64,000 nucleotides of DNA from Carpediemonas membranifera BICM (taxonomy: Eukaryota; Protista; Fornicata): positions 1,669,780 to 1,733,779 of the forward strand of contig JAHDYR010000012.1 of NCBI GenBank assembly GCA_019828565.1. The letters run 5' to 3'. The translations under genes were made by a program, and so were the position numbers. The notes beneath the pieces are model-generated. The model was not told the DNA's origin and did no database searches. It saw nothing but the letters and a program-made list of their open reading frames with translations. Position 1 is the first letter of the stretch. Every line of letters starts with the position of its first letter. Positions 1,938 to 50,600 of the stretch are shown piece by piece.

Positions 1938-1974
1938 GTAAGTCCGCCACCATCTAATGCTGTCAAAATCCTAG
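1938..1974 (+). other. Candidate 37-nt spliceosomal intron of an unresolved gene
   Basis: AAG|GTAAGT...CTAAT...CCTAG matches the size and style of the intron at 4876-4904, but I could not build a convincing coding sequence around it. Confidence 0.3.
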
Positions 1975-4764: not shown

Positions 4765-5549
4765 ATGCCAACGTCAATCGAGGTGGATGACCTTAAAGAC
4801 GTCGAGCAGAAGTATGTGAAGGAGGTTTATGACGTTATTGCTGCTCATTTCGCCTCCACGCGGACCAAAGGCCCTGTTAGTCCCGTTTTCCCCGCCTTAT
4901 CCAGTGGGCTCCCGTCAAGGCCTATTTGAACAAGCTCCCCGATCATTCGGTGGTCCTAGACGTAGGATGCGGCAACGGCAAGTACTTTCTCGTGAACCCG
5001 CGTCTGTTCATGGCCGGCCTGGACCAATCCGCCGAGCTCGCCAAGATCGCCGTCAAATCGGGCAACCCGCTCGGCCTCACCGTCGGCAATGCCACCGCGC
5101 TCCCCTTTTCGTCCAGCGCCTTTGACCATGTGCTCTCCATCGCGGTGCTTCACCACCTTTCCGACCCCGCTACCAGGGCGACCATGTTGGGCGAACTCAT
5201 CCGTGTCACCCGCCCCGGGGGCACCGTGTTCGTCTCAGTGTGGTCTACTAACGCCCCGTCGGCCGGTAAGCGGAAGGGCCCTGGGCAGGAGCCCGGGCAG
5301 GACAGGCTTGTCCCATGGCACCTGCAAAAGAAGTTCACGGACGACGATAAGGTGGCGAAAGCACAGACACCGCACGACAACACGGGCGACACGAGGAACC
5401 TGGAGGTGTTCTACCGCTACTACCACTTCTTCAGGGAGGGCGAGCTCGAGGAGGCCGTGAGGGATGCCGCCGAGACGTGCGGCCGAGAAGTCTCGGTGGA
5501 GGTCAGCTCAGACAAGGGGAACTGGTACGCCGAGATCACTGTGCACTGA
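4765..5549 (+). CDS. Trm9/ALKBH8-like SAM-dependent tRNA methyltransferase, 2 exons (4765-4875, 4905-5549)
   Basis: Removing the 29-nt intron GTTAGT..CCAG (4876-4904) joins EQKYVKEVYDVIAAHFASTRTKGP to WAPVKAYL..VLDVGCGNGKY..SIAVLHHL..RYYHFFREGEL..KGNW, which are typical Trm9-family motifs. Confidence 0.88.
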
Positions 5550-15900: not shown

Positions 15901-18900
15901 TAGATGATCGAAGAGATCCGTGATGGCGCTCTTGAACTCTTCCTCCGTGTGCGAGTAAGTGAAGATATCGTCGACGTAGGCTTTGGAGCTCTTGCAGTCT
16001 TCCAACACCTCGTCCATCGCTCTCTGGAACTTGGCCGGGGCATTCTTGAGCCCGAAGGGGGTACGAAGAAACTCGTAATGACCGCCTGGGATAGTGAAGG
16101 CGGTGAGTGAGACGCTGTCGGGGTCCATACGTTGCTGCCAGTAGCCGCTTCGGAGGTCGAGCGTGCCGAAGAGTGAGCAGCCGCTTGCCTCATGGACGAA
16201 GGAGCAGATATCTGGTGTCGGGTAGCGATCGTCTTCGGTGGCTTCATTCAGAACGTTATACGCGACGCAGAACCTGTCCTCACCGTTCTTCTTCTTCGCC
16301 ATCACGTGTGGGGATGAGTACGGCGAGTCACTTGGGCGGATGACTAATTGTTGGAGCATCTTGTCGATTTCAGCGGCGGCGCTGGACGCTTGGGAACCCT
16401 TAAGGGGGCGTGGTCTTGCCTTCGGGAGCCTGTGGTCGCCAGGCTTCAGGGTGATCTTGTGTGGACGCAACTCGCTGCCGTCCTCTGGCAGCTCGCCGAA
16501 GAGCTCGCGGCGTTCGTATAAGAAGCCTTCGAGCCACTTAGTGAGGTCTGGATTGTCATCGTAAGGGATTCGGACCTTCTTCCACTCGTTATCAACATCA
16601 ATCTCATCTGTGCAGGAGTCGAGATACGGGTGTGGAGGCAGATTGTCGTTGTCGGAGATGGTGGCGGATGACGGGATCAGCAGTCTGTCGTTCATGAGGT
16701 AGCCCAACCTTCTGAGGAGGTCGCGGCCGATCAGGACCTTTCGGCGTTTGGCGCGGATCACCATCAGCAATGCGGTGGCCTGCACGGTCTTGCCATCGAT
16801 AGACGGGAGAGTGATGTCGACCTTTGCGGCCTTACCGATGGAGATGACCTCGTCGCCGGCGCCGAAGAGCTCGACTGAGGTGTCGATGAGCTGGTAATTC
16901 GGGACCTTCGCTAGTGCGGGCTCCGAGATGACTGAGACGCAGGCTCCGATATCGAACTTCGTCTTGATTTGGACACCGTTGATCGTGGCCGGGACGTTGA
17001 TGGGGTCGTTGTCGATCTCAACAGCCCCCACCTCATAGACGTCACCTTCGTCCTCGGACTCGGCGTCATCTGAGGCGTTGTTGTCGACTTCATGGACGTC
17101 GCGCTGGCCGCGCGAGTTGCGAAGCTTTGAGGAGTCCCTCAGGAACATGTTGCCGGCCCGACGGTCGGACTGCGTACCGCTGGTCTGCTTCTGGTCGTTC
17201 TTCCGCGGCTGAGAGGAGCCGGAGGTGCCCTTGGACTGGTTGTCCTTCTGCCGTGCGAGGAACCTGCATGACTCTGTCGTATGGTTACTGTTCCACCCAT
17301 GAGACTTGCACCACTTGTTGAAGTGCTGTGGGATGGCATACTTGTGCTTGTCTTTGAACTGGAGATAGGGATCGCTTGTATGGGGCAGTACTGTCGGCTT
17401 TTGCTTGCCAGGGGCGCGACGGCCGCTGTCTTTCTGGTCGGCGGGTTGGGATGTTACCGCGAACGCCCGCCACGGGACAATAACGCGTTCGTCGTGATCG
17501 ACGTCGAGGTTCTCGAGGCGAGAAAGAAGATCGTCGATTGACTCGGCTGGGTCCTCGATGATGTCCTCGTAAAGAGCCTCGGCGTCCTTGCTATAGCCCT
17601 TGAGGAAGATCGACCCCAGTAAGCGCTCGGTCGAGTTGTAGGTTAGTGCCTCGATGTCTGGGACGCATGGATCGTAAGCGTTGAGGATCCTACGTAGCTT
17701 GAAGACGGCGAGTCGGTGCTCGACGGCTGGGCCGAAGAATCTAAGGCCGGATGCCTTGTCGCGCACCATCTTCAGTCTCGATCCCATGTCGAGGGTCGGT
17801 AGGAGCGTATAAACGATGTAGGGGATGATCGCCTTTGCCTCGGCGCGGAGGTAAGCGTAAACGTCGGGGAAATCAGCACGCTTTGGCCAGGCGGCCAGGT
17901 CGGGCTTCTCATCTATGGTGGGCTCCGGGACCTTGTCAGAGAAATCTGGGAGTGTCATGTCGGTCCCGTCAGGCACGGGGACAGTCGGGGTTGCGGCGCT
18001 GAAGAGGTCGGACCATCTGTTGGCCGCGGGGTCCTTCATGTACGAGGTGATGAATGTCCGGGCCTTCTCAGTGGCCTCCGGGATTGCGCGTTGTATCTCT
18101 GCCGAGATTGACTCCTTTGTCAGGCTGGTGAGGGCCGGGTCCTTGAAGTTTGAAGAGACCCGCACACACTCTGCGTACTGCGCTCGCTTGCAGGCCGCCT
18201 CAAAGGCAGCAGCGAAACGCTTGGCGATTGCATCTGCGGTGGGATTGTGGGATATAGCTTGCGGAGCCTCGTCCGAACGGGCCTGAGCTCGGGCTTCGGC
18301 GTCAGACATAATGGAGGTCTGGAGGCTCTCAAGAGTGGGAAATTTCGCTGTCGGACGCCAATCACGCTTTAACTTCGCGACCGTGTCCGCTGTGAGCGTT
18401 TGGATGAAAGAAGTTGGGTTTCTCTCGTGGATAATTGCAGTGGTGTAATCCGCGAGCGCCTGGATTGCGCTTTCTGGATCATTAGTCGTGAATTGCTTCA
18501 TTTCACCGGTAATATCGATATTGTGCCGTGTTACGAATGAGTTTTATGCAACAAACTCCCGCAGTTTAGGGTCACACCTGGCCGGTCCTCAGACGGGACA
18601 GCATGCCCTGGAGGGGCAGCTCGAAGCAGTTCGAGACGCGACCAGAGACCGAAGCGATTACGGTCTGGAAACGGGCTTCCCGCTCCGCCAGGTCCGCCCG
18701 ATGAGGTCCTTGGAGGTGCCCGCGGAGCACCTGGCGGGTGATGGGGCGGTTGGAGGTCCGGCGCTGGGCGGCCTCAACCGTGCTGACAGCATGACCAGCT
18801 TGGGCAGAACAAGTGGCGACAGCCACGACGCGTCCGGTCAAGGTGCGACGCGTACCTTCATCGTCGACGACAACACCCGTTACGCGGCGGATATCCTCAG

Positions 18901-19156
18901 GTGGGTGCCGGCGGGTGATCGCGCGAGCCGCAGGAACCTCGATGACGACGTCCTGTGGCGATGACGGCTCAACAATGGGTGCTGAGGAAGATTCCTCGGG
19001 ACGAGCACGTCTCTGGGGCATATCGGTGCTGTCCGGCACGAGCACGGACTGGTGTTTGCGCTTCAGAGCGCGGAGACGTTCAGCAACGGGCAGATTGCCG
19101 TCATTGCCAGCAAGATCAGCGATCAGTGCGTCCAAATCATGCACAAGGTTCTCCAT
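12955..19156 (-). CDS. B antisense accessory ORF, 444 aa after removing element C (19156-18577 + 13709-12955); C-terminal chromodomain-like region
   Basis: The two listed ORFs join in frame across TSD CCTG (..RTGQ-VFSAGDEAGDLMTRQ..). C-terminal DYVIVECLRH..LVVKYQNY. Confidence 0.75.
13789..18501 (-). CDS. C Gag-Pol single ORF, 1570 aa, intact
   Basis: CHHC-type knuckle CKSHGWNSNHTTESC, protease FDIGA, RT YVDD, RNase H TDAS, integrase, chromodomain IRWEGLTPDEDS. Confidence 0.95.
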   Translation of the reverse strand: MKQFTTNDPESAIQALADYTTAIIHERNPTSFIQTLTADTVAKLKRDWRPTAKFPTLESLQTSIMSDAEARAQARSDEAPQAISHNPTADAIAKRFAAAFEAACKRAQYAECVRVSSNFKDPALTSLTKESISAEIQRAIPEATEKARTFITSYMKDPAANRWSDLFSAATPTVPVPDGTDMTLPDFSDKVPEPTIDEKPDLAAWPKRADFPDVYAYLRAEAKAIIPYIVYTLLPTLDMGSRLKMVRDKASGLRFFGPAVEHRLAVFKLRRILNAYDPCVPDIEALTYNSTERLLGSIFLKGYSKDAEALYEDIIEDPAESIDDLLSRLENLDVDHDERVIVPWRAFAVTSQPADQKDSGRRAPGKQKPTVLPHTSDPYLQFKDKHKYAIPQHFNKWCKSHGWNSNHTTESCRFLARQKDNQSKGTSGSSQPRKNDQKQTSGTQSDRRAGNMFLRDSSKLRNSRGQRDVHEVDNNASDDAESEDEGDVYEVGAVEIDNDPINVPATINGVQIKTKFDIGACVSVISEPALAKVPNYQLIDTSVELFGAGDEVISIGKAAKVDITLPSIDGKTVQATALLMVIRAKRRKVLIGRDLLRRLGYLMNDRLLIPSSATISDNDNLPPHPYLDSCTDEIDVDNEWKKVRIPYDDNPDLTKWLEGFLYERRELFGELPEDGSELRPHKITLKPGDHRLPKARPRPLKGSQASSAAAEIDKMLQQLVIRPSDSPYSSPHVMAKKKNGEDRFCVAYNVLNEATEDDRYPTPDICSFVHEASGCSLFGTLDLRSGYWQQRMDPDSVSLTAFTIPGGHYEFLRTPFGLKNAPAKFQRAMDEVLEDCKSSKAYVDDIFTYSHTEEEFKSAITDLFDHLLAANVRLKADKCALGLSEVEVCGFIVNEMGRSVAPARVQAIRDLFPPTTTSELRRSLGKFNYLSNYIPHLADAAAPLNRLLKGSPGKSSPVAWGAEQDAAFAKMKDLVTEHTALALPDLDKPWTLETDASSVAIGGVLWQGEGVEKVPLAFYSKTLDETQQRWSTVEQELYAIIHCVTRPEFSALLKIKPFSLRTDHRNLIWLLRKTDEEGTKKLTRWRLTMTEYPYSIAHIKGVHNVVADSLSRPSSVPEDRDDLKAAIEQVSSSHRHLINQAHAGAQGHVSVAQTMANLRNAGQSWPDMKSDVRETLRSCAVCQKVRPPAREKTKWHSTQRLKPFETVQLDTIGPLPEEAGMSYIITIVDVFSKFTILRPVATTKAEEAAAAMLDVWSTFGVPKEIQTDQGTQFRNALIAECNAIISLQHRFSTPYHPASNGVVERLNGTIMSRMRALLLDAEDGDWPAYLPLAQHVINSTRHATTGRSPFELLFGKESTLRVAPIALANATKSCTPGSVDEGEIVRFQEDVAALQALARVKIRAYEARKAKATADTHAWEREQYVLLRYPGKPPAKIYTPLRGPFRMEGKGEHPNTYRVRDLVTRCVSTVHADRLVRFETDLSDTELERIAAFEQGEQPVKEIVGHKKKKNGSLELLIRWEGLTPDEDSYVPYNRYYDQLAALDDYLVAHPEHEAAFAAAKKKFRSSGRR
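18511..18522. promoter_or_regulatory. Palindrome at PBS position of C: AATATCGATATT
   Basis: Perfect 12-bp palindrome overlapping the 5' LTR end. Confidence 0.85.
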
Positions 19157-22100: not shown

Positions 22101-22177
22101 ACAGATTTATATTGTCGAAGCCAGAATAAATGACGCATTCATTCTCGACTTCATGCGTCATAATTGTATTGATTCTC

Positions 22178-32318: not shown

Positions 32319-35300
32319 TTAGAGTCGGCGGCCCCGACCAGCGAAGGCAGGTCCAGTACTGCGCGGTTCAACCCCGTGACGAGCAAGGTGCGCTACCACT
32401 TCAGGCAATTCTAGCAACTCCGGCGTCGGGTACGACCGTGTCACAAACCTGTAGTCTTCCCATTTCAACGTGAGGAGTCGACCACCCGGGCCATTGCGAC
32501 TGCCAACAACTCGTTCCAGTCGATAAGTACGGAGCTCATCAGTGAACTGGAGCCCTCCGTCGCCCGTAGTCATGAGTACCGGTACCCACTGTGGATGGGC
32601 TTTGAATACCCGCATGACCAAGCGGAATCGCTTCTCCATCTCCGGTATATCAGAGGACCGGTAGCAAGCCTCTTGAAGCAAACCATAGACTCCCGGGAAG
32701 ACGGCTGACGTTGTCGGTGGGAAACATTTTAATCTCGACACAATGGTGTCGTAATCATCAACTGATTAAATGATAAGGAGTCTACGACATCCTGCTCCTC
32801 CCCCGCTCCGAGGTGTTCAACGGCTTCCATCGAATCCTATGTTGCCGGAGGTAGTCGGAAATTGGGCCGACCTTGGCATTGTCGCGTGTCAGTGGTTCCC
32901 ATGTCGGTCTGGGTGTAGCCCTCCCACTTAATGAGTAGGGTGTGGTCTCGAGTGTTGTGCTCAAGTACTTGTTCTACAATGTATCTCTCGTCGTCGGAGG
33001 CGGCATACTGTCTCGCCAACTCCAGGGAGATGTCAGGGCAGAGGGCAATCTTGTCCAGATGCGTGAATTGCCTCTCGTCATTGAGTAGGGACGCTACTTC
33101 AACAGCGTTGTTGCTGTGGATTGCGTGAACCTTGAATGGGCCGAGTAGGCCGTGCAGCTTGTGCTTGACAGCTGGTTTGATGAACACTAGGTCACCTGAC
33201 CTAATAGCTGGGCGTGTTGGGGCAGGGCCCAGCCTCTCCTCCCTCTTGTTGCACTGAGTTATAACCTTGTCCAGATTGTCCTGGACGTGAGCTAGTCGAT
33301 CGAGATATTGCGCGATATCGGGTCTCTCTAGCGCCGCTTGTTGATTTCTGACCAGACCGATCTCTGCTCGGCGGCCGTAGACGACCTCGTGCGGCGATAC
33401 GCCGAGCTTCGTGTGTGTTGATGTGTTCAAGATGTGCTGGACGAAGGGGAGGAGTTGGCTCCACTCTCCATAGCCGTCCATAGCCAGCGCCAGCCATCTG
33501 AGGTGACGTCCGACTTCCGCGTTCCGGCGCTCGACCACCCCGTTACTTTGAGGATGGTATGGCAACGTCCGCTGGTGGTGCGCTCCGAGCTGTTCAATCA
33601 GGAGGCTCACGACCTGATTAACATACTCTGTTCCGTTGTCACTCTTGATGTAGCTTGGGATGCCGTGGCGGGTGACGGCCAGCCATATGGCGTCGACCGC
33701 GCTCTGGGCATTGTTTGCGGTTGCCGCATGCAGCTCTGTGTAGCGTGTGTAGAGGTCCGTGATGACGTAGATGTACTTGGCCCCATACGCGTCCTCCGAC
33801 AGCGGTCCCACCGTGTCGATGGCTATGGTGTTCCAGAACGAGTCTTGAATGGTGCGCCCCTCTGGGGCTGACAAGAACTGCTTGAGCCTTGTCTTGGCAC
33901 AGGTGGGGCACTGCTGGACGAAGTTGCTCACGTCTCTAGCGCGGCCGGGCCACCAGGCGACCTCGGCTACCCGTTGAAGCGTATCAGCTCTGCCGCCATG
34001 TCTGCTGTGGGCGGCTTTGATCAGCTTGTGTCGTAGCGCTCTGGCGTCTTTGGGGAGGACGGGGACGGCATCCTTCACCCAGGTGTTGTTGTTGATGGTG
34101 GCACCAGCGCGTCGCCAAGAATCCTTCTCCTCTTGGGAGGTGTTCTTTTGAGCAGAACTAATCTCATCGTTCCAATCTGTAAGCTCCACGGCTAGTGCGT
34201 CGATGCGGGACATCAAGTCCGCGGTCTCGTTATCAAGACCGGCGATATGTTCGATTGTATACTGATAATCCGATAGTAACAGCAACCAACGGAGGATCTT
34301 ATCGTTCTTAAGCTTCTTCTGATCAAGATACACAAGGTTCTTGTGATCAGTCTGAATTGTCAGATTTGGGTGAATCCTGAAGAGCTGGCCAAGATCTGGT
34401 CTGGTCAGGCAGTGTATGATTGCGAACAGCTCCTGTTCGTAGGTACTCCACCTTGTCTGAGTCTTGTTGAAGGATCCCGAGAAGAACGAGACTATCTCTT
34501 GGCGTCCGTCGTCCCCCTCCTGAGTGAGGATGCCACCGAATCCTATATCTGAGGCGTCCGTCTGGAGCACCCACTTCTTGTTGAGGTCCGGATGGACCAG
34601 TACTAGGTACTTCTCGAGGCGTCTCTTGAACTCGTCAAGTGCCTCATCATGAATCGATGACCAAATGAAATCGGCGCCATCGGTGGCCGACCGCAAGTCA
34701 TTGATGGGAGATAGTACTCTACTAGCGTCAGGAACAAATTTCGCTACGTAGTTCAGCGAACCACACATTGAAAGAAGTCCTTTCTTCGTCGTTGGCGTTT
34801 TCAGGGCATGGATTCCCTCCACGCGTTCCTTGCTTAGCTTTAGGCCCTCTGTATTACAGATGAAGCCTAGCATCTCCACCTCCTCCACGCCAATCTTGCA
34901 TTTCGGCGCTTTGAGCCGGAGGCGTTGTTCCTTGCAGATATCAAGGACGTTGTGCAGCCGTTCTAGGAACTCCTCCTTCGTGCGGCCATATATCATGACA
35001 TCGTCGATGTAGATAGCCACGCCGTGGTGTAGCTCCTTCGCGAAGGCCTTCTCCATACATCTCTGAAAGTGTGATGGGGCGTTGCAGAGGCCAAACGGGA
35101 GTCTCTCGAACTCCTCGTACGCATCCGGGGTGATAAAGGCGGTCTTGGGAATGTCCTCCTCCTTAACCTTGACTTGATAGTAACCTTGTCTCAGGTCGAG
35201 ACTGGCGTAGTACTCTGCGCCTGCGGCTTCCCGCAGGTACGCCCTGATGTCAGGTAGCGGGTACCTATCCCGCTTCGTGTGACGGTTGATGACGGTGTAG

Positions 35301-38300
35301 TCTACACAGGCGAATCTTGGTCGACCCCTTGTGCCCGTTCGAAACCACCACTACGGGCGAGGCATATGGCCCGTGACTGTGGCGGATAATGTGCTGGAGG
35401 TGCATCTGCGTGACCTCCTGGCGCACCTTCTCTCGCTTTTCCTCCGAGAGGTGTCTCGGTTTTTGGTTGAACTCATTCACCCAGTCGTCGGAAATGAAAT
35501 CAATAGACATCGGTTCAAGCTTGCTACCTTCTGTAGGGAGCTCTTCCTCGAACACTTCTTCGTATGCAGCGCAGATCTCTCGTGCTGCTGCGCCGGTTTC
35601 GTTCTCGCCGAACTCGATCTTATCGATTTCGGTCTTGATGCTCCTATTATCAGCGTGTTCCGCCGATAAGTAGCTGTGGTTGTAAGGGAGGATGTCATCT
35701 TCCTTCTCCGGGCCTTCTGGCGACGGGAAAGGGAGGAAGATTCCTCTGTCGCTGATGAACCCGAGGGCTCTCAGCTGATCTACGCCCAATAGGAGCTTCT
35801 CCACAGGACCTGGGAGTACTCTGAAGCTGATGTTCTTGACTATGGGTCTCGTGGTCAGGTGTGGGAGCTCGACGCGGAGCTCAACCATCTCATTACCCTT
35901 GACGGTGCTACCTCCCGCCAGCGAGACGATAAACGGTTGGCACTTCTTCGGCTTGATGGAGTTGTCACGCTCTCTCAGAGTGTGAAGCAGTCGGCTGCTA
36001 ATGAATGAGACCCCGGCTCCCGTGTCAACCGTAGCAGAATAGGAGGAGTGATTTATGACAGCCTCCGTGTGGAGAGCTTCAGCATCACCCTCCTCTGCCG
36101 TGTGCGCCTCGAAGGGCGTCTTCTTCGGGGGGTTAGGGCGGAGCTGGCCGCTCTCGCGGGTCCGGCCCCCGAGCTTAGGGCAATCTGAGTCCCAGTGCTC
36201 GCCTCCGCAAAGGCGGCACGGTCTAGTACGCTGCTTACGCGAGGACTGGGCGGCAGTGGTGGTCTTAGCAGCCTGGGGAGGCGCCTGACGGTGCTCCCGG
36301 TGGTCGTTGGCCTGCGAGGCGCCTGCAGAGGTGCTGGAGGCGGTCGTGGTCGTGGAGTTAGACGCATCCTCGAGCTTGGCGACGGTGCGTGCGATGTTGA
36401 TGAGGTCCTTGAGGGAGGACGGCTTGACGAACTGGCTCTCGAGCTCGATCCTTTCGTAGAGCGACTTCGGCTTGATCTTCTCCAGAAAGATCTTCCTTGC
36501 CGTCTTGTCGAAGGCGGCTGCTCGCTTCGCTGCGACGTCGGCGGCAGTGAGGAGTGCCTCCTCCTCCACCACCTCGGCAGTGCCGTCTTCAAGCAGGCGG
36601 GCCATCTTTCGCTTCTCCTTGCCAAAGAGCGCTGCTAGGCTCTCGCTGCCCTCCTTCGCGGCGGAACGAAGGGCGTAATCTGCGAGTTCCACGAAATCGG
36701 CGCCCAGCTGGCGGACGACAGAGAGATTCGAGGGGTAACCCTCGGTACCCAGCTTCGGGCACAGCACAGCACGCAGCTGGCGTTTAAGTTCGAGCAGGGA
36801 ACGGGGTGTGGCCTCGGATTCGAGGAACTCATATACTTGGTTGGAGGTGGCGCTCTCAGCGCTCACACCGAGGGTTGCTTCTAATTCTTCCTGTAACTCC
36901 TCGCTAAGCAGGAGCCCGGTAGCATAGTCGGGGATCCGAGCGCGAAACACGCGAACCTCGGCTTTGAATTTCTTAACACCGCGAGGATCGAGCTCCTTGG
37001 CCGACATACGCGGGAAATTATAATCGATTTCCAACTGAACCATTACGAGTGATCACTATGACGTTGTCGGTGGGAAACATTTTAATCTCGACACAATGGT
37101 GTCGTAATCATCAACTGATTAAATGATAAGGAGTCTACGACACGGCTAAGGCCAGGAGGTGGCAGAGGGACTTGTCACCCCTACCAGGGAGCTTGCGTCG
37201 GATAGCGTCCATCTCATGGTGCCAAGTGGCGGCGCGATGCAGGTCCAGTTCAGGTAGTGCCTGGGCAAGTTTCATGAAGGCCTGAAGATCGAGCAACACG
37301 CGACGCGCACAAGAAACACCCTTATGTTGGCGTTCGACGTCTTCGAGGGAGAACTCACACTCGAACCGCTGTTCACGGAGAGAATTCATAAGCGGGGTGA
37401 GTGTTAGAGCAATCGAATGGGCGTGCTCGCCCAACAGCCGATGGACCAGCCGGTTCAAGTCCGAAACGTCCGTTCCTGAGGCGTGGGAGAGCTGGCGAAC
37501 CGTAGTAGTCACGTCAGCAGGCTGGTTGGCTTCGGGCTGGCCGTCTGGCAGCGTTGGGGAGCTGTCATTCCCCGGGGCATCGTCCGAAGAAGTCGGCGAT
37601 TCGTCTTCTTCGCTGTCATCGTTCGAGCTCTCGTCTACCGACGAAGCGGGCTCTGAGTGACACACGGGACGGCGCACAAGCCTCTTGCGCCTCCTGTTGC
37701 CCGGTGCTACGCGTGACTGAAGAGAGAATTCGTTTACTTGGGGAAATCCGCATAGTTGGACCAAAGGTCAATCGTGGTCAAACCCACGTCACTACCCCCT
37801 TCGACGAGAAAAACCCACCTGCTAAAGGAAGGGAAAAGAGGGTACTTAGTACTTGTCGAGGGACTTACGAGCTTTGCGTGCCTTACGCTTGATGATCTCG
37901 AGGTGCTTTATGGCACCGAGAGGCTCGTCGGTCAATTCATCGTAGCCTAGCCACTTGACCCGGGCTGAACCCTTTTTCCAGTCGATAGATACTATATCTT
38001 CGACTCTGTACTGCTCCTGATCCGACTCAGCTAGCTGCCTCATAAGGTCTTCGCTAACATCAGTCTCGAACTTCATCAGCTTGTCAATATGCGTAGCCTT
38101 GAGCCGGTTATCGCTTAGCGACATGAGCTTAGCTCTGTTGTTAGGGGAGTACCTCTACCACCTTCCACGGACCTGTGTGGGGTGTGTCAAGTTTTTGAGG
38201 GGCTTCGTTCTTCCAAAGAACGTAGTCCCCTGGCTCTAAGCCTGTGGTCTCGATCGGGCTCTGGTGAGGCCCTACTGCCTGTTTTGCCGCCTCTTCGAGG

Positions 38301-41300
38301 TTAGCCAGGGTGACCTTAAGGTTTTCGTAGAATCCTTTGTAGTCGAAGACGCCTAGCGTCTCTTCCGACCACAAAGTACTGTCCATTATGTTGTGTGGGT
38401 GGCCATAGACCAGCTCGTGGGGGGTAAATCCCGTGGCCGCCTGCAGTGTACCGTTGATTATCATCCGTACTGTTGGAAGTAGGGTCCAGGGACCAGTCGT
38501 CCTTAGGAGCGATAGAGAGAGCCATCCACCTTAGGTGTCTTGCTACCTCGGCGTTACGCCTCTCCGCCAGCCCATTGCTTTGTGGGTGGTAAGGTGTCGT
38601 GAAGTGACGGCTGACCCGTAGGGTGTCCGTCAACGCTTTGACCATCTGGTTTGCGTATTCTGGTCCGTTGTCTGACAGGAGCTCCTTAGGTAGCCCGTGC
38701 CTCGAGAATACGTTGTCCCATAGGGCTTGCGCGACGGTGTCTCCGTCGATGCTCGCTACCGGAATGAGTTCCGTGTATCGCGTGAACATATCCGTCGCTA
38801 CAATGATGTAGCGGGCGCCCCTCGGATCCTTCGGTAGAGGTCCCATGGAGTCGACCGCTACGGTCTCCCAGGGTGACTTTCTAGTCGACGACCCAGCCTC
38901 AGGCTGCAGATAGTTCTTGATCCTCGCCTTAAGGCAGATCGGGCATGTGCGAACAATCCGCTTGCAGTCTTGCAACATGCCTGGCCAATAGGCCATGGTC
39001 CTCAGGCGCTGGTACGTAGCGTTGGTTCCACTATGGAACTGGTGTGCGACCTTGAGGTACCGCGAGCGAATATCGCCTTCTGGTATAATGGGGACGGCGT
39101 CCTTCAAGTAAACGCCGTCCACCAGGGTTACTCCGTCGAGTTTCACCCAACCTTCCTTAGTAGACTCGGGCTGCTTGGCCTGGTCATCCCGAACCTCCTC
39201 TAAGGATGGTCCCAGGGTCGCTTCCCCCACGTCTAGCAGGTTCGCTTGTTCCTGGTTACCAGAAGGAATATCCCTCGACAGCATATCCGCCATCTTGTTT
39301 GACTCACCCGCAATATGCGTGATGGAGAAATTGTAGTCTGATAGAATCATAACCCATCTGAGCAGCTTTTTTTGAAAGTTCTTTTCTCTTCAAGAGATAG
39401 ACTAAGTTCTGGTGATCAGTATGAATCTCGATCTCGTCTTTAAGACGGAAAAGCTGTGCCATGTCGGGACGAGTCAGACAGTAGATGATGGCGTGGAGTT
39501 CTTGCTCATATGTGGGCCAACGCGACTGAGCCGGCGTGTGGACACCTGCGAAGAAACTCACTAGTTGGCGATTTCCGCCGTCACTGTCCTCCTGGTACAG
39601 GATTCCCCCTAGACCCTCATTCGACGCGTCCGTCTCGAGGATCCATCTCTTAGAGATGTCAGGGAAGCTTAGAACAGTGTCAGATGTAAGCTTAGCTTTG
39701 TAGGCTTCGAAAGCTTGGGTATGCTCGTCCGTCCAAAGGTCGGAGAGTGAGCCCTTGACCTTTAAGGCGGTGGTGAGTAGGTGGTTCAGGGGACGGAGTG
39801 TCCGAGCAGCGTCTTCGATGAACTGCGCAATGTAGTTGAATGAACCTAGCACCCTCTGGAGTGACTTAGCCGTCTCAGGGACTGGAATATCCCAGATCGC
39901 CTGTACACGCGATGGAGCCAGCTGCTTCCCTCTCTCAGAGACGATATAGCCTACGGCCTCCACGTGGTCCGTGCCGATTTTGCACTTGCCTGCGTTCAAG
40001 CGTAGCTTGTACTCGCGGCAGATGGAGAAGACTTTCTCCATCAGGGCGACGAACTCGTCCTCCGAGCGAGCATATACCATGATATCATCAAGGTATATGT
40101 CGACTCCTTTATGGAGGATTTCCGCAAAGGCCCGCTGCATAGCACGCTGGAACCTTGAGGGAGCGTTCGTCAGACCAAAAGGACACCTAGTGAACTCGAA
40201 GTACGAGTCCGGGGTAACGAACGCGGTCTTAGGAATATCCTTTTCACTCATGTTCATCTGATAGTACCCCTGCCTTAGGTCTAGGCCTGCAAAATATTTG
40301 CAGCCTGCCGCGCGATCCACGAAATGTCTAACATTTGGGATCGGGAACTTGTCCTTGATCGTTAGGTCGTTCAGCTCTTTGTAATCTACGCAGAGTCTGA
40401 TTTTCTGGGAGCCCTTGTGACCTTTCTTCACCACCACTATGGGGGAACTGTAAGGGCCTCGAGACTCACGGATAATCCCAGATCTCCAGAGTTCCTCGAG
40501 CTCGGTCGCTACAAGCGCCGCTGTCGCGTCGGCAAGGCCTCTAGCTCTCGCCTGGACAATGTCCCGCTCGTTTACGAGCTCTATAGTCATCTCCTCCAGG
40601 TTAGACCCTTCTGCGGGGAGAGACTCTTCCCAAATATCGGGGAAAGCGGACACGAGCTCTTCGAGCTGGGGCTTTATCGCTGAGTCCGGAATATCCGGGT
40701 GGTTCTCTTCCACTTCAGCTGTGTTCAGATCCTCGTCGAGGTATCTGTGAGTGAATGGAACCCACTCTGATTCGTCCTCTGAGCCTAGCTTCTCGAGGTT
40801 GAAGTTGAGTGTCTCATCGTCGATGAACTTGAGCGACCTAAGAAGGTCACAGCCCAATAGGACCTTAAAGGCTTCACCTGGAAGCACATAGAACTTCCAG
40901 GTCGTCGTAATGGGCACTGGGCCGAGCCGTTCTAGACGGAAGGTGAGCGTAGCTACTTGGTTCGTCCGAACCTTGTGGTTATCCCCTAGGGTCACAGTGA
41001 TCCACTCTCCAGTGTCAACTGATACAGAGTCCCTGGGTAGCTGGCGTACAGCCTTCTGGCTCATAAAGCATATACTTGCTCCAGTGTCGACAGTAAAAGA
41101 ATACTCACGGCCATTTATAGTTGCCGTGGTTGTCATGGGACCGGCAGACGAAGTCTGGGCCGCGTTGGCCTGAGCCTGGCGCTCCTCAGCGGCGAACTTC
41201 GGGTGCTGAGGGCAGCGGTAGTCCTTGTGCCAGCCCTGACAAAACTTGCAGGGTCTGGTAAGAGGCTGAGGAGCCTGCTGGCCCGAAGGGCGCTGACCCT

Positions 41301-42337
41301 GAGGTCTGGAGAGGTTGGGGCCCTGAGGGCGCTGGCTGTTGGCAGGATGCGTAGGGCCTCGGCCCACACGCTTGACGTGGCCGGCTGGAGCCGGGACGTG
41401 GGCCTTCGGGCCCCTGGGGGGACCCTGGCGGTCAAGGAACTTAGCCGCCTTGACCGCCGACTTGACTGTATCGTCGAAGGAGTCATCGCCCCATAGGAGC
41501 GAGATCCATCTCGTCTTAGTCTTCAGGGCCTTAGGCCGCTGGAGGAGCGTCGATGAGCAGTCTGCTACAGAGCTGCTCAAAGCGGTGACGTCTGGAGGAT
41601 ACCTCCTCGTCCGTGGCGGCCTCGGGGAGGTCCTCGCCCGGAGGAAGGGAGTCGAAGAGACGCATCCGGTTTCGGAAGCTGGCGACCAGCACACGGGTTG
41701 CTCGCTCGATAGAACCCATGGCGGTGCCGTTGGGGACATTACGGGTACTGTCCCAGTCAAGAGAGAGAGATGCTAGGTTATCTAGCAGGTCGATGACGTT
41801 GTCAGGAGTTACGAGCTTGCGCATCAGAGTGGAGAGTTGATCAAGGGTAGCTCTCGTGAAATCGACGTCGGGGTATTGTGCTTGAAGTTCTGTGATGTCT
41901 TCGAGTGACAAGAAGTCCGTGGGAGCAACCTTGCTGTTCGTTGCAAGGAAAATCCTGCCCATACGCTCAAAGGCGTCGATACTCTCGATGGTTGCATCTT
42001 TCAGCTTGATAGTGGGGTAATTACCTGTAACGGTGTTGATTGAAGTACTCATGAACTAGTTCTAGAACTGAAGAGAGAATTCGTTTACTTGGGGAAATCC
42101 GCATAGTTGGACCAAAGGTCAATCGTGGTCAAACCCACGTCATGACGATCGCAGATTTTGGATGTCGGAGCCCAATGTTGCACAACGGCGCTGCAGAGAA
42201 CGCATTCGAGGATCATCAGATTCCTCAGAAGCTACTAGCTGCAGCAACCGCGCCAATTCCCCCAAATGTTCCGTCACCATTTGCACCAAGATTGGTGCAA
42301 AATGAAACATCCCAATCCCGAATGGAAAGCCGCTCAA
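32319..42337 (-). CDS. D antisense accessory ORF, 382 aa after removing F and G (42337-42143 + 37713-37143 + 32701-32319); C-terminal chromodomain-like region
   Basis: Both junctions restore the frame exactly (NLRSS-RVAP; LALA-VFPG). C-terminal TYRLERVVGSR..LLTLKWEDY. Confidence 0.75.
32706..37142 (-). mobile_element. Element F: chromodomain Gypsy element, 84-bp LTRs; gag-pol 37043 to ~32782 with frameshifts
   Basis: Identical LTRs at 32706-32789 and 37059-37142. TSD CGGC. CRLCGGEHWDSDC, VDTGA, YIDD, IKWEGY. Related to E. Confidence 0.93.
37048..37057. promoter_or_regulatory. Palindrome at PBS position of F: AGTGATCACT
   Basis: Perfect 10-bp palindrome 1 nt from the 5' LTR end. Confidence 0.85.
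37718..42142 (-). mobile_element. Element G: chromodomain Gypsy element, 74-bp LTRs; gag-pol 42052-37846 with several frameshifts or stops
   Basis: Identical LTRs at 37718-37791 and 42069-42142. TSD TGAC. CKFCQGWHKDYRC, VDTGA, YLDD, VKWLGYDELTDEP. Confidence 0.93.
42058..42069. promoter_or_regulatory. Palindrome at PBS position of G: AGTTCTAGAACT
   Basis: Perfect 12-bp palindrome overlapping the 5' LTR end. Confidence 0.85.
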
Positions 42338-42508
42338 ACATGGAGTTATGATCTCTTTATTGTTGTCTTGATGTTGTTTAGTCGTTTAGTAGCTCTGTAG
42401 TGGGTCTTACCCAATACTTACATAGTTTATGACTTATAGATTACACCATATTTGCAACCATTGGGTTTTCTCTTTATTAAAGTTCTTTCCCTCCTCCAGT
42501 AGGAGCAC

Positions 42509-42520
42509 ATTAGATCTAAT
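42509..42520. promoter_or_regulatory. Palindrome at PBS position of H: ATTAGATCTAAT
   Basis: Perfect 12-bp palindrome overlapping the 5' LTR end. Confidence 0.85.
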
Positions 42521-45500
42521 CCAAGCCTATGGAGAGTAGAAAGGTAACTCCCCCGTTGTTGAAAGCTCCAACGATGCCCGCGTTGATCAAGTTCGTGGAC
42601 GAACTCTCGGACTACCGGGCGTTGGGCGGAAAACAAGACATTGATCTACTTGTGGATAAGACCATTCGCGATTACGTCACAGACACGATTGGTGACGAAT
42701 CTGATGGCGAAGAGAGCGTCCCTCTCATCGTCAAGAAGGCATCTCAGCAGAAGCGCAAAGCTCGCGACCTATTCGTGGTCAAACGCTTGGGTAGGACACT
42801 TCGTCCCACCAGGGAGATCGCGCGCCTAGAGCTGTTCCGAGCGCGCGCCGCTAACTTCTCCCCTGCCGAGGTCGTGAAGATCAACCGTAAGTTCACTACG
42901 CTCTTAGCCGTGGTGCAGCCAGACTCGTCCGAAGAGGTCCTGAGAGAGACGTACGCGCGGTGCTTCAAGTTCGGTTCTAGCTCCCGCACAATGTACCGCG
43001 TCAAAGAGCTGATCGAGGGCCAAGCGTTGCTCGAAGCCATGCCCAAGGTCCTGGCCATGAGCCGCGATGTTCAAGAGAGCAGGGAGATCACCGAAGCCTT
43101 TGGCGATCAACCTGTCTCTAACAAACATCAACGCTTTAACCAGCACAAGCCGAAACGTGACAGTCAACCGTTGAACCACGGTACCCATGAGAGCCACCAA
43201 CATTCCGAAGCGAAGAAGGACATGAAGCGACTCGACACACGCAACCACACGGATCGCAAGAAGAAGTTCGACACCTACACGTGTTTCAACTGTGGCAAGT
43301 CGGGCCACCCATGGCACAAATGCCCAGTCCCGAAGCATAAGTGTTCAGCCTGCGGTCGGGAAGGTCACCTGGAGAAGTTCTGCCGGGGTAAACAGCCCCT
43401 CTACGTTCTTTCAACTTCTACAGAAGATGCATTCCTCAGCTAACCTTCCCCTAGTCAAGGCCAAGTTCCAGCAGACCGTAATCTCCATCCTGTTAGACTC
43501 AGGCGCGAACGTGTCCGTCATTCACTCAGAGTTAGCGAAAGGCATGAAGCGCGACAGCCCCAACCACAACCCAGACGTGCAGACGGCCAACGGCCGAAAG
43601 TGTTCCCAAGGCGTGGTGACGACTGACATCAAGCTGCTACCCTCGGCGTTTACACCCAGACAGTGTTCATGCCAGATCACGTGCCTGGTACTAGACACGG
43701 ACTTCGATATGATCCTCGGGTACCCAGATATGGTGGATTTAGGTATCATGCCCCGCGTGGGCCAAGACACCCAACTCGAGGGACCAGACGCATCGATCCC
43801 GCAAGCCACCAAACAACAGGCAGCCGTGTATCAACTCAGCGCAGATACAGCCGACGAACAGGCGCGTATCATCAAGGAGTTCAACTCACTGTTTCTGGAC
43901 CGAGACGAGCCGAGTGTCCTCGAGCCGTACGATCTGATCCTCTCAGGCAACAGAGTGGTCAACGCCAGACCCTACTACATCCCGCAGCAGAAGGTTCATG
44001 TCATCAAGGAGCACCTCGACGTTCTGCTCGCGAAGAGGTATATCGAAGCGTGCCAGAGTGAGTACGCCAGCCCTGCCATGACGGTGCCGAAGAAGGGAGG
44101 CAAGACTAGGTTCGTAGTCGACTTCAGGGAGGTCAACGCGATGACAGCGCCGTTTGACTACCCGATACCGCGAATAGACGAAGTTTTAGCCCAGCTCTCC
44201 GGCATGAAGGTGTTCGCCACACTCGATTTATCCGCAGGATATCATCAGGTCGCCCTGTCGGAGCGGTGCAGAAAGTACACCGCGTTCACTACGCAACTAG
44301 GCCAATTCCAGTACAGACGCATGCCGTTCGGACTCCGCAATGCTGGAGCTCATTTCCAGAGAGCTATGGAGAAGGCGTTCCGAGGTCTGGTCGGGTCAGC
44401 ATGCCACATATATATCGACGACGTCATCGTCTTCGGCGCGACCGAGGCGGAGTATCTTTCAAACCTCCGCAAGGTGCTGCTCAGGGCTAAGGAGACCAAG
44501 TTGCAGCTCAACCGGGAGAAGTGTCAATTTGGGCGTGAGGAGGTCGAGTTCCTCGGCTGGGTAATCAGAGACGGCACCTACGACATTTCACCGGAGCGTG
44601 CCCAAGACGTTAGCGACCTGGTCCTTCCCAAATCCGTCAGGGGGATGCAGGGACTAGTCGGATTCCTCAATTATTTCAGGGACTTCGTGAACGACTTTGC
44701 CGTGATCGCCAAGCCGCTGACTGACGCAATGGCAGGCAAGATCCAGATCGGCGGCGCACAACAGCAAGACGCGCTCGATCGCCTCAAGAAGGCACTCACC
44801 TCCAAGCATACCCTACAGCTGTTCGACGCAACCAAGGAGCATACTGTCATGACAGACGCATCCGGACTCGGATACGGCGCAGTGCTTTTGCAAGAAGGCA
44901 AGCCCGTGTGCTACATGAGTAAGGCGTTCAATGACGTGCAGTCGCGCTGGGCCACGAACGAGAAGGAGGCTTATGCCATCGTCGCAGCCCTGCAGAAGTG
45001 GCGGAAGTTCCTGTCGTGGGGAAAGTTCACCCTGCTGACAGATCACCGCAATCTACTATTCATGTATCGCAGCGTCAACTCGAAGGTGAAGCGCTGGGCC
45101 GACGCGATAGCGGACCTGGATTTCGACATTCAACACATCCCGGGTCTAGATAACGGCGCAGCCGATGGCCTATCGAGAGTGTTCACAGTGAGACAAACAG
45201 CGTCGACGACCGATATTAAGACGGCGCATGAGACCGCTGGGGCACATCTATCGAGGAGGATGACCATAGAGCGACTGAGAGCCGACAATATGTCTGTATC
45301 ACGTGCCGCAGTCGACGAGTACGTGTCCGCCTGTCCAGTGTGCCAAGTGCTCGAGCGTCCACCTGTCGACCAGCCCGAGGCCCTATACACTGGTGTCGAT
45401 CAACCATTCAAGCGTGTAGCCATAGACACGATGGGTCCCTTCCCCGAGGCAGACGGTTATACTCATTTGACCGTGATCATAGACATGTGCAGTCGCTGGA

Positions 45501-46502
45501 TCGAGCTGGTACCCGTCAACGGCACCACGGGCGAGGCTGCGGCCAACGCCTTCGTCAACAACTGGGTGCTACGCTTTGGTTGCCCGGAGGTCCTCCAGTC
45601 AGACGGTGGTCCGGAGTTCAACAATCAGCTATTCCACAGACTCGCGACGGAGATGGGCTTCGAGACGCACATTACAACACCACACCACCCCCCAGTCGAA
45701 CGGCATGGTGGAGCGTGTCAACAAAGAAGTCCTGCGGATCCTGAAGGCGAGGAGATTTCACTTACACGATTCCAACTGGATACGTCACCTACCAGCAGCC
45801 TGCTTTATCCTCAACTCTACCCCGAGAATCCCGACGCGGTTAATCCCCGCTGAGGTAATATTTGGTTTCAATCTCAGGATTCCAGACAAGATATTCTTGA
45901 CCGACGTAGCTATAGCGAGCGCGAAACAGTACCATCGCGCGTCAGCTGAGGCAGCCATACAGCTCGCCAAGGCGAGAGCTCAAGCTATGAAGGAAGACGC
46001 GTGGTCGAAAGCGGCCTCATCACGGACTGAGATTCTCAGCAGGTTCGTGTTAGTCAAATACCCCGCTAGACCCCCAGACAAGCTATCCCCCGGCTGGCGC
46101 GGCCCAATGAGACGCGTCAACTGTATCAAGCAAGACGGTATCCCCGTAGCTTATGAGGTCCAAGACCTCACTGAGGGCAAGAGGGGCAAGACAATCAAGG
46201 TCGACGCAGCCAGAGTACGCAAGTTCAACCCAGGCACGCTATCAGAGTCGCAGATCAGGCAGATCGCCGCCACGGCGTTGGACGAGTACGAGATCGATCG
46301 CATATCGGACGATAGGGGCGCAGGGCCGGTCACGAAACGAGAGTACCTCGTGCACTGGCTCGGGTTTGAAGACGACGAAGCGACATGGGGGCCGTACGCT
46401 AACGTCAAGAAGACCGAGGCCCTTGAATTGTTCCTGAAGAAGAGCTAAGACATTTACAAGTGCCTGGTGACCGGGGTAAAGGGCACACACACACAAGATC
46501 GT

Positions 46503-47615
46503 TTACTTGAACCAAGACGAGGGGCAGTGCTTAGTCAGCTTGTGAGCCCGGAGGAACTCGCGAGTGATGTCCAGTCGAGCCAACTCTCGGTCGACCGCGA
46601 CGATGGAAAGCCCCGGGAAGCCAACGTAGGCGATGAACAACAGAAGGACGCCTTCGCGATTGAAGTCGTGGCCGACGATGGCCTCGAGCTCATACTCGCG
46701 CTCAGGATCGGACGCCTGCAGACTGAGGCCGACCAGACGGGGAGGCAGAGCAGGCAGACCATGGGCGAGGTTACGGACGAGATAACCCCAGATCGCCGAC
46801 ACGTCGGCACCGCGAGAGGACGCGACATAGACGAGGCGGTAGTAGGCAGGGGCGAAGGTCATAATGGTCAGACGGTGGAGAGACAAGCGAAGCTCAGTCT
46901 CGGAGACGCCAATCCGTCCGCCCATGAGGTACTTAATCAGTGCGGGGCTGACCAAACGATGGGAGGCTCCAGTACCGGTGATGCTCATGTCGCCATCAGG
47001 ACATCGGGACATGATGTCACGATCAGAAGCCGGACCCAACTTGTAATAGAGCGCGATCGACTTCAAGACTGAGTGGTCAATGCGCAGGTCGCGCACCTGT
47101 CGAGCCAGCGTTTTCAGAGGACCGACGTCAAACTGGGCGAACCCCCCAGTCTCAATGGCGTCAAACACCGACTGAAACGGGAAGTCCACCCAGTTGACGT
47201 AGTTGTTGACGTGCTCAGTGACGAACGGCGTGAGCACACCGTCGAACTCGGTGAACGGCGGTAACTCAAAACCCTCAAGGGGGACAGAAGACAACAGCTT
47301 CTCGCGCACGGCAGTCGTGATTGTGGCGCTATATCAGCGTTAGGTTGATGTTGTTACTTACTTTTTGGCCGTTTTGCGGCTAGCGCGCTTACGGATCGCG
47401 CCAGAAGGAGCGGCAGCGGCAGAAGAAGCGGAAGGCAGCGTGGCCAGAAGATCCTGAAGCTCAGCGGGAGCAAGCTCCATGAGCTGCGAACGGATATCGG
47501 CAATAGACGACGCAGAAACCGTTTCCCCGCTTTTGGCATGCGAAAAGCGAAATGCCAAATCTGACAATTTAGTTCCGCGTCGAAACTCCCCCAAAATGCT
47601 GCCAAACAACGTCAT
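46503..47615 (-). CDS. H antisense accessory gene, 2 exons (47615-47362, 47328-46503; ~359 aa), C-terminal chromodomain-like region
   Basis: A 33-nt intron (GTAAGT..CTAAC..TAG, 47361-47329) removes the stop and joins ..RKTAK-NATITTAVREKLL.. in frame. C-terminal EYELEAIVGH..FIAYVGF. Start codon uncertain. Confidence 0.72.
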
Positions 47616-50600
47616 ATAACCTCCATTTATCCCCTTATTACCTATTTTGATGTTGTTATTATTATTGGTGCAGGCACCAGATGACGGCAATGGCTGTGAA
47701 GAAAAAAGCACCAGAACTCGACAACGAAGCCTCGTTGAGGCCTCTAATGGCCATATTTCGACAGTACTATGTAATGAACGCGAAGAAGTCCCCATGTTGG
47801 GCAAAATACGAAACCGAAGGTCGTTTGACCCAAAGGTGCACCGTTTGATTGTTTCAAACTGGTTTGTTTTCATTTGACGGCCTATACTGGCCGTGGAGGG
47901 GCAGTGTCCCCGGTAAGGATCCATTTTACATCAGCGCGCAATTTATCCAGTGGTACCACACAAAATATTTGAATCTCAGGAAAAGATTTGAGACATTGTC
48001 AGTGCGCGTAGCGACACCGACGAGAAGGTCAGACATAGCCCATCTCACTGCCAATGAGATGGACTGCGGCGCGAGCGGCGTGGCAACCGTGAACAAAGCA
48101 GTTGACTCTTCGACAAATCCTCACTAGCCGTACAGTCACACCGCTTGAGGTCGTGCCCATTTGGGCACTGAAGGGGCAGTGTAGTGGGTCTTACCCAATA
48201 CTTACATAGTTTATGACTTATAGATTACACCATATTTGCAACCATTGGGTTTTCTCTTTATTAAAGTTCTTTCCCTCCTCCAGTAGGAGCACAGCTCTAT
48301 CTGAGCGTAGTCGTGGTGTGAATTCACGCTGCAAAGAAAAAGGCTCGTATCTCGCCGTTGAGGCCTCGTTGAGGCCTGAAAATGCCATTTTCAGCACTAA
48401 CCTGATTAATGGCGCAAACAGTTGGAAAGGGGCGGTGTTTCACCATCGTTGTGCTTGGATGGCCATAACCTGCACCCAAGCATTTTAAGGTACGTCACAT
48501 TTCGATTTTCGGCGAGGAAAAGCCGAGGAGGGGCAGAACCCCTATGGTAGGATCCTTCTAACCCAGCGGTACCGCGCGATTGTAAGCCGTGCTATTTTGC
48601 ACGTCGTTGTGCTTCTTGTTGTGTCCCCGCCAAGGTCGCAAAAAAGGGGCTCGATCGGTGGTTGGCACCCACCAGGACCGGCCCCCAAGAGCCAACATTC
48701 ACCCCCACTGGCAGTAGCCAGCCGTCAAAGCTCACGCTGTCTGGGGTCATGCCTCATTGAGGCATGGAGGGGCAGTGTCATGGGTCTCACCCAAGATTAC
48801 ACAGATTTATATATGATATTAGTTAGTCAAGGAGTTTCTCCTCGACACCATTGTGTCGAGTCTTCTCCTCTTGTAAACATAGTTCGTCAAACGAACCACA
48901 AGGCCGCACGGAGGATGGTTCAGAACGAAGAGAATAGAAGTAGGAACATGGAGCAGACGGCAAAGAAGAAGAAGGACGAGGGCCAGAAGCGCGCGGCGGA
49001 CATACAGAGACAGCACCCGCAGTCGCCGGTGACCGCTGGGCTGTGGGTGTTCGTGGACCGGGACGCTGAGATCCGCAAGAAGTACGACCTCAAGTGGCGC
49101 GGGCCGCTGAAAGTGATCAGAAAGGTGCCCGGGAAGAGCAACTCGTACATCGTGAGAGACCCGGAGACAAGGAAGACGTACAAGAAGCATGTCAGTCACT
49201 GAAGGTGGCCGAGGGAGAATGGAGTGAGGAGAAGGCCAAGATCGCTTGCGCGCTTGACAGAAGTCAGGCGTATATTAAGGAGATCGTAGACTGGAGGGTA
49301 AGGAGAGACGGCAACAAGACGCCTGAAGTGAAGTGCAGGTGGTTGGGATTCGAAGCTAGCGAAGATACCTGGAGAGTGGCAACAGATGAAGACATGCGGT
49401 CCAATATCGTGTTATTGAAGTACATGGAGGATCACAGCCAGCTAACCAAGTGCATTGAGGACCATTTTTTCAGAGTCGATCGGAGTCAGGAACGGAGGAG
49501 GGCCACTGAGAGGGAGGGGTAGTGAGATTAACGTGTTATGTAAGGAGAGGTATCGGTTTAGACCATATTAGCCATAGGGTGAAACCTGTAAAGCATTCCG
49601 AGCCGCGGTTCCGTATTTCAAAAAGACAGGATGCAGTTTATGTCGTGCTACAACATTGTGGGCGTATGAGCTCTGTGATCAGGTACTAAGAACTAGTCTG
49701 CCTTTATAGGGTTAACCTCGTAGGTGAAAGTGGTCTAAACTACAGGGCTTTGAATTCATCACTACCCCTCCTTCTTCAAGGCTCGGCTTCAATTCTGATT
49801 ATCTTTTGATTGACTAGTAAGACGAGCCTTAAGGTCTGTGTAATTCGATATCGCTTCGTCTAAGTCTGGATGGAGCTGTCTGTACTGCATAAGCGGTACG
49901 TTAGACTTCATATCTTCATCTGTAGGATCTCTCCATGTGTCGTCCGACGGCTCGTATCCTAACCAGCGGCATTTCACCAGTGGTGTCCTCATAACGTCTT
50001 TCTTAACCTTGTGCGTCACTATCTCCTTGATATAGGTGTGCATCCGATCCTTAGCGCACTCAATCTTTGCCTTCTCTTCGTCCCACTCACCTTCCGCCAG
50101 TTTCAAATGTGCAACATGCTTCACGTACGTCTTGTTCGTCTCGGGGTCTCTAACCACGAACGAATTCTGATTCGTCTTTGCCTTCTTCACAACCTGGAGC
50201 GGTCCTCTCCACCGCAACTGGTATTTCTCCCGTGTCTCCGCATCTCGGTCCACATATACCCAAGCCTTCACGCAGACACGGGTGGGAGTCTTCTTTGCGT
50301 GTCCTTCTTGTTTCTTCTTAGCATCATCGTATGCTTTGCGAGCGGCGTTCTTCCTCTCCGTGTCGCGTTCCCTCTCGCCCCTTACCATCTGTTCAACCTT
50401 CGTCATGTCTTCTCTTCCTCGTAAGTTGGACCCGTCTTGTCCACGTTGGTCTCGTGACACCATCAGCTTCCAGGGCGAAGTGCTGGTGGCGGTTGCCCTT
50501 GCTTGGTTGATGATGTTCTGTACCGTCGGAAGCACGCTCAGCCACGCCTTCGACTGTCTTTGGTACATCTCATCACGGAGGTGCCGGTTCACTTCACGGT

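Follow-up and report, generated by a model that had tools for sequence, protein, structure and literature searches.

A putative spliced antisense gene for a chromodomain-like protein in a Ty3/gypsy retrotransposon of Carpediemonas membranifera

A Ty3/gypsy retrotransposon in the genome of Carpediemonas membranifera, a free-living anaerobic protist, is likely to carry on its antisense strand an accessory gene that is interrupted by a 33-nt intron and that encodes a protein with a chromodomain-like C terminus. We place the probability of this whole account at about 0.65. One part of it, that the 33-nt segment is a real spliceosomal intron, is probable from the sequence and is supported more by homology than by the splice pattern alone. 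The element, designated H, lies in a 64,000-nt stretch of contig JAHDYR010000012.1 (positions 1,669,780 to 1,733,779), here called the window. Coordinates are those of the window, and the features discussed are collected in Table 1.

Table 1. Positions of the antisense genes, their flanking motifs, element H, and the host intron in the window
Feature	Coordinates	Strand	Description
5' LTR of H	42396..42509	plus	114 nt; target-site copy GCTC before it
gag, protease, RT, RNase H, integrase, and integrase chromodomain of H	42520..46448	plus	Three frames, two frame breaks
3' LTR of H	48180..48293	plus	100% identical to 5' LTR; followed by GCTC; purine tract before it
Exon 1 (H antisense gene)	47362..47480	minus	Likely start ATG 47480; short predicted helix, then basic stretch
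GT-AG intron candidate	47329..47361	minus	33 nt; phase 2; three in-frame stops
Exon 2 (H antisense gene)	46503..47328	minus	274 codons plus stop; predicted helical core, C-terminal chromodomain-like domain
Chromodomain-like domain	46530..46718	minus	About residues 258-320 of P0001
Non-coding motif ending in T-run	47703..47757	minus	Repeat family D8, from alignment; shared with A (19487) and C (48337)
AACAACATCA word	47648..47657	minus	Also upstream of antisense ORFs of A (19432) and C (42378)
Two TAAAY words	46452..46505	minus	Candidate poly(A) signals; one overlaps the stop codon, the other is at 46456
Antisense gene of element A	12955..19156	minus	444 codons, no coding intron; interrupted by nested element 13714-18577
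Antisense gene of element C	32319..42280	minus	363 codons, no coding intron; interrupted by two nested elements; approximate start
Host intron, Trm9-like methyltransferase gene	4876..4904	plus	29 nt; yardstick

From about position 8790 on (8790-62750), the window is a dense nest of at least ten Ty3/gypsy LTR elements, several of them with identical LTRs. Element H (42396-48293) is inserted in element C. Its LTR pair, its intact 4-nt target-site duplication, and the order gag-protease-reverse transcriptase-RNase H-integrase identify H as a Ty3/gypsy element, and its integrase ends in a chromodomain that scores above the Pfam cut-off (PF00385, E 5e-9). The identical LTRs and intact target-site copies mark H as a young insertion. 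The antisense ORF lies between pol and the 3' LTR. A reverse transcriptase tree, built without reference elements, joined H with C (93/100), and a single origin of the antisense gene was not apparent from it. Chromodomain-bearing gypsy lineages have been described outside the chromoviruses (PMC12477816). The copy or its assembly is imperfect. The gag-pol frame breaks at 43380-43450 (+) and within a C-run near 45690 (+), and a G-run near 47530 (-) is one base shorter than in the sister models; these are either long-read assembly errors or real lesions.

The preliminary description had drawn attention to a 33-nt segment with a donor, a CTAAC word, and a TAG acceptor. Rereading of the minus strand from 47361 to 47329 reproduced it as GTAAGT...CTAAC...TAG, flanked by AAAAA and CGCC. 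An in-frame stop is present as claimed, but the segment holds three (TAA, TAA, and TGA) rather than one. Excision fuses the two ORFs, as proposed, into an open frame of 314 codons that runs from ATG 47480 to the stop at 46503, and no other GT..AG excision joins the frames among spans of 18-129 nt with donors 30-159 nt past that ATG. The segment has the GT donor and YAG acceptor of a U2-type spliceosomal intron. Its GC content is 0.36, versus 0.59-0.60 in the flanks; none of 881 other 33-nt stretches of the antisense gene falls below 0.42, making the segment the lowest in GC.

The size match with a host intron, which had also been pointed out, held when the host intron was verified. The Trm9-like frame stops if unspliced and is open if spliced, and its exon 2 then starts at a W whose counterpart in the alignment is residue 9 of Trm9 chain 5cm2_Z. 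The comparison rests on this one verified host intron, which the candidate resembles in size (33 versus 29 nt) and at its ends. In addition to CTAAC, the candidate has a second branch-like word, CTGAT, that directly adjoins the acceptor, and the nine-base 3' end has the same shape in the candidate (CTGAT-A-TAG) and in the host intron (CTTAT-C-CAG). The two C. membranifera introns known at the time of an earlier study have branch-like sequences that abut the 3' end (PMC1201135). It is possible that CTGAT, rather than CTAAC, is the branch point. A second host intron at 2692-2728 was considered and rejected because an in-frame ATG at 2689 opens the zinc-finger frame without splicing.

The splice pattern by itself is only suggestive, because frame-joining donor words are not rare in the window. 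A strict intron pattern occurred 4 times, versus 0.9 ± 0.7 expected from 40 Markov-3 simulations. Frame-joining GTNAGT donors numbered 7, versus 0-6 for 12 control words, and those accompanied by a branch-like word numbered 4, versus 0-1 for the control words; two of these four (2692 and 21588) look false. Other intron-like sequences are present in the window. An AT-rich span of about 43 nt on the minus strand (GTAATA...CAG, 47641-47599), whose removal would drop two upstream ATGs, is possibly a second intron in the 5' untranslated region. A strong intron-like sequence of 37 nt (GTAAGT, CTAAT, TAG) at 1938-1974 (+) lies just past a AACAACATCA word, in a region without an obvious coding gene.

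Homology provides the stronger evidence. The frame of the H antisense gene is open beyond ATG 47480, with a further in-frame ATG upstream at 47615, and exon 2 has no ATG in its first approximately 105 codons. Exon 1 had the best codon score of the six frames, though this score was only about 0.0 bits per codon. Read in the frame set by the GTAAGT donor, exon 1 aligned with the N terminus of the 30%-identical paralogue P0007 with a score of 46, versus 22.9 ± 4.2 for shuffled sequences, and none of 5000 shuffles reached it. Exon 2 aligned with the remainder of P0007. The match of both exons to one protein indicates that the two ORFs are the halves of a single protein. P0007 does not fix the junction, because the spliced and read-through forms score alike against it (320 and 324) and because P0007 is longer by 8-11 residues at the intron site. 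The P0007 model may retain an intron, or coding sequence may have become an intron in H. Homologues of the H antisense ORF (2 of the 2766 candidates scored) all came from C. membranifera, as did the four proteins found at E ≤ 0.001 among 1.84 billion representatives. Scans of metagenome contigs for relatives yielded 329 and 394 pattern matches, none of which was confirmed, and the ESM Atlas held no usable match for exon 2 or the P0007 C terminus.

Two NCBI models that are putative sister copies, J8273_6117 (P0001) and J8273_0515 (P0002), have exactly the spliced junction. They were compared as protein models, that is, as gene predictions. Gene models of C. membranifera were made with Augustus/PASA, with RNA-seq hints for training (PMC8516963). 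In exon 2, the sister copies and H disagree at 11 of 274 and 8 of 218 residues; in exon 1, they differ by a single in-frame gap of 6 residues. When H pol was the query, none of the 7992 candidates scored was a near-identical model.

The joined junction in P0001 and P0002 would fit an intronless allele equally well. Under this alternative, which we regard as improbable, the 33 nt are an insertion private to the H copy that killed its gene, and the sister copies show the joined sequence for lack of any intron. Copies of the antisense gene of element A have real-looking in-frame deletions in the same N-terminal zone, and 12 nt of the segment repeat the upstream AACAACATCA word, as a template switch could yield; a repeat of this length between the intron and the upstream region was reached in 16 of 20000 shuffles. 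However, the ends of the segment have no target duplication or repeat, and they coincide precisely with GTAAGT and TAG, between which lie two branch-like words. P0007 is longer at this site, not shorter. A clean insert with such ends would probably be spliced anyway.

The preferred reading, a spliced antisense gene in H, gains from the presence of related genes in other elements. Elements A and C have antisense ORFs in the same slot as in H, and both are open once the nested elements are skipped. Homology places the gene of A in the family (a tblastn match to P0004 at E 4e-5, in addition to two further NCBI models). The gene of C is linked to it by its C-terminal pattern and by flanks in common with the others. 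Two integrase-chromodomain fragments of a fourth family flank one accession of the P0004 group, which suggests that this family has the same antisense layout. The related groups comprise 14 NCBI models, with element context read from accession order for one group only. Three other elements in the window (repeat pairs D10, D12, and D14) leave no room for an antisense gene. That A and C have no coding intron at the homologous gene counts against an intron in H.

It is also conceivable, although improbable to a similar degree as a private insertion, that a real intron sits in an antisense transcript whose function lies in the RNA itself, through double-stranded RNA or transcriptional interference against the element, with a protein that is a by-product or no longer needed. 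For Arabidopsis Copia families, non-coding antisense transcripts with several exons are reported (10.1101/2024.04.02.587720), a double-stranded RNA function has been raised for antisense genes of this kind (PMC7264820), and other elements split the antisense genes of A and C. Against this, long open frames persist in four or more families whose proteins are 18-34% identical, indels are in-frame only, and the C-terminal pattern is conserved.

The non-coding flanks of the antisense gene would be consistent with a separate transcript. A motif ending in a T-run lies upstream of each antisense ORF in A, C, and H, and may be a promoter. The AACAACATCA word, for which 0.125 copies were expected, occurs seven times, including a repeat inside the H intron at 47355 (-), two copies in pol frames, and one at 1891 (+). 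TAAAY is found within 71 nt of the end in four of four host genes and three of three antisense genes, versus 0.054 expected per 60 nt, a motif picked post hoc. The poly(A) signal of Giardia is given as WGURAA (PMC11529991). Shared upstream blocks together with TAAAY ends are the anatomy that would be expected of a separate transcript. The earlier proposal of an intron within a genuine antisense gene draws support from homology, from composition, from upstream motifs in three elements, and from a downstream 3' word of the host type. The 3' non-coding regions of A, C, and H also have in common a GTGGTACCAC palindrome and a CTGCCCCTCC block (approximately 48001-47940, 19700-19640, and 48600-48540, minus strand).

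The AACAACATCA copy inside the segment, like those that precede three antisense ORFs, could be taken as a second start site, as if the segment were decayed coding sequence or the join between two short adjoining genes and no splicing occurred. The length of the segment is a multiple of three and the read-through form aligns to P0007 as well as the spliced form does. This alternative is nevertheless very unlikely, since three stops and a drop in GC are confined to 33 nt of a copy so young that there was little time for the stops to arise by decay, exon 2 lacks an ATG for about 105 codons, and both halves match one protein.

NCBI annotation is not independent proof of the splice, because the model that matches the H locus itself, J8273_0557 (P0003), uses another donor, GTAACA, 4 nt downstream, and a different exon-1 frame. 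Splicing as in P0003 (donor at 47357, 29 nt, exon 1 from ATG 47539) has a deposited model and a host-like length in its favor, but it is highly improbable: exon 1 in that frame is not homologous to P0007 (18% of 3000 shuffles reached the score) and has a poorer codon score. Near 47530, H is one G short of what the sister models imply, and the P0003 donor and frame compensate for this, so that the model looks like the predictor's repair of a one-base difference upstream. Stop read-through or an altered genetic code was ruled out by the presence of three stops of two kinds and of long ORFs that are open under the standard code.

The antisense protein family is predicted to end in a chromodomain-like fold. 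A profile of five C termini had as its best match in the PDB the Swi6 chromodomain 2rso (E 0.0085), with 4quc second (E 0.4), and it matched a profile of the six integrase chromodomains of the window with E 2.5e-4 and a probability of 43%. An alignment-based model had a pLDDT of 52 overall and of 62-80 at the C terminus, where it formed three strands and a helix. Among the 50 structural matches listed, 16 cover residues 258-321, and all 16 are chromo or chromoshadow domains, although with low Z scores (3.3-4.1; rmsd 2.5-3.4; 48-58 residues aligned). Three aligned aromatic positions, which we take to be the methyl-lysine cage, are kept in all five C termini, and the TWE motif is absent from all five.

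Other searches set limits on this assignment. No Pfam family was recognized in any of the six members, and the PF00385 cut-off was not reached; for this reason the domain is named chromodomain-like. Single C-terminal sequences did not score above shuffles with an integrase-chromodomain HMM, and profile A4 was not significant against the integrase chromodomain of H alone. Folding of the domain from a single sequence gave an all-helical model of low confidence (pLDDT 52). Whole-protein profile A2 had no PDB sequence match, the best match of profile A3 was at only E 0.14, and Foldseek found no match at E ≤ 0.001. A wide structural search with the low-confidence helical core found only generic helical bundles (Z ≤ 6.3). 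The basic stretch in exon 1 is possibly a nuclear localization signal.

We propose that a host Pol II transcript would start from an internal promoter near 47650-47750, would be spliced, and would end near a TAAAY word and be polyadenylated. The product would have about 314 amino acids, or 332 if translation starts at the upstream ATG that the sister-copy models have. With its basic N-terminal stretch and chromo-type C terminus, it would be a nuclear protein that likely acts on chromatin for the element. The genomic RNA would hold only the complement of the intron, and every new copy would thus keep it. An intron antisense to the genomic RNA survives reverse transcription, as in the Ty1 his3-AI design. 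By analogy, and tentatively, the protein may be a chromatin reader made independently of Gag-Pol, which most likely would tune the silencing or transcription of copies or aim integration at element-rich chromatin such as the nest. Chromodomains are reported to steer integration (PMC6673714).

The layout is already known from plant, fungal, and algal elements; the new part is the chromodomain-like antisense family, more than the intron. REM1 of Chlamydomonas reinhardtii is, like H, a Ty3/gypsy element with a chromodomain-bearing reverse-frame ORF behind pol. Its ORF3 is described as a truncated integrase end with GPY/F and chromodomain (PMC2774666) and with a PHD finger (PMC6673714). In contrast to REM1, the integrase of H keeps its own chromodomain on the sense strand and the antisense protein has a second, diverged chromodomain-like domain on an unrelated helical core; the H antisense family has no PHD finger or other Pfam match. 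The aORF-3R antisense ORFs between pol and the 3' LTR, namely gene23 of maize Grande, rice RIRE2, and TRP28 of Silene Retand (PMC7264820, PMC11963269), have the same slot and orientation as the H gene and are likewise retained among copies and families. For Grande gene23, an internal promoter of its own and a nuclear product are described (PMC7264820, PMC11963269). No sequence relation between these genes and the H family was found, and the host of H is a fornicate protist. The available sections of these sources describe no intron in those ORFs (PMC7264820, PMC11963269), whereas the H gene has a candidate intron.

Boty of Botrytis cinerea, by its description, resembles H in being a gypsy element with a chromodomain integrase and an extra antisense gene, brtn (PMC8365987, PMC4227169). 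Spliced antisense protein genes inside LTR retroelements, as proposed for H, are exemplified by HBZ and APH-2/3/4 of HTLV, whose antisense transcripts are spliced, polyadenylated, and protein coding, with a 3' LTR promoter and a bZIP-type regulator as product (PMC3185765). HTLV is a retrovirus with a 3' LTR promoter, whereas H has an LTR of 114 nt, a promoter that seems to be internal, and an intron of 33 nt. A literature search, largely limited to papers outside subscription, yielded no account of retrotransposons in Carpediemonas or of these genes.

Extra antisense genes of LTR elements are mostly without known function, and a domain that resembles a chromatin reader offers a testable handle. 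A spliced gene inside an element would be the best sequence evidence for an mRNA of its own. With an intron in H that is absent in A and C, this would be a small, dateable case of intron gain or loss. A more far-reaching scenario, which we consider unlikely, is that a lineage of fornicate retrotransposons uses an antisense promoter of its own to make a second chromodomain-type protein, free-standing and serving in counter-silencing or targeting, and that one family gained the 33-nt intron after the families split, from coding sequence or from a copied promoter word. If this were true, it would be intron birth inside a mobile element in the one orientation that is immune to erasure by reverse transcription. 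The genome paper on C. membranifera, a metamonad, reports loss of canonical DNA-processing complexes (PMC8516963).

Several minor observations concern H and the nest. Tf1 is a self-priming retrotransposon. A short palindrome (TTAGATCTAA) at 42510-42520 (+) directly follows the 5' LTR of H, and by analogy with Tf1, H is possibly self-primed. P0012 and P0013, on contigs of 6.3-6.6 kb, are gag-pol relatives with 44-57% identity. An ORF for a Tc1/IS630-like DDE transposase lies amid the retroelements at 22130-22978 (+). Each of four nested elements (D10, D11, D14, and H) has its insertion site within an antisense gene of A or C or just upstream of one, a pattern that may reflect insertion preference or selection.
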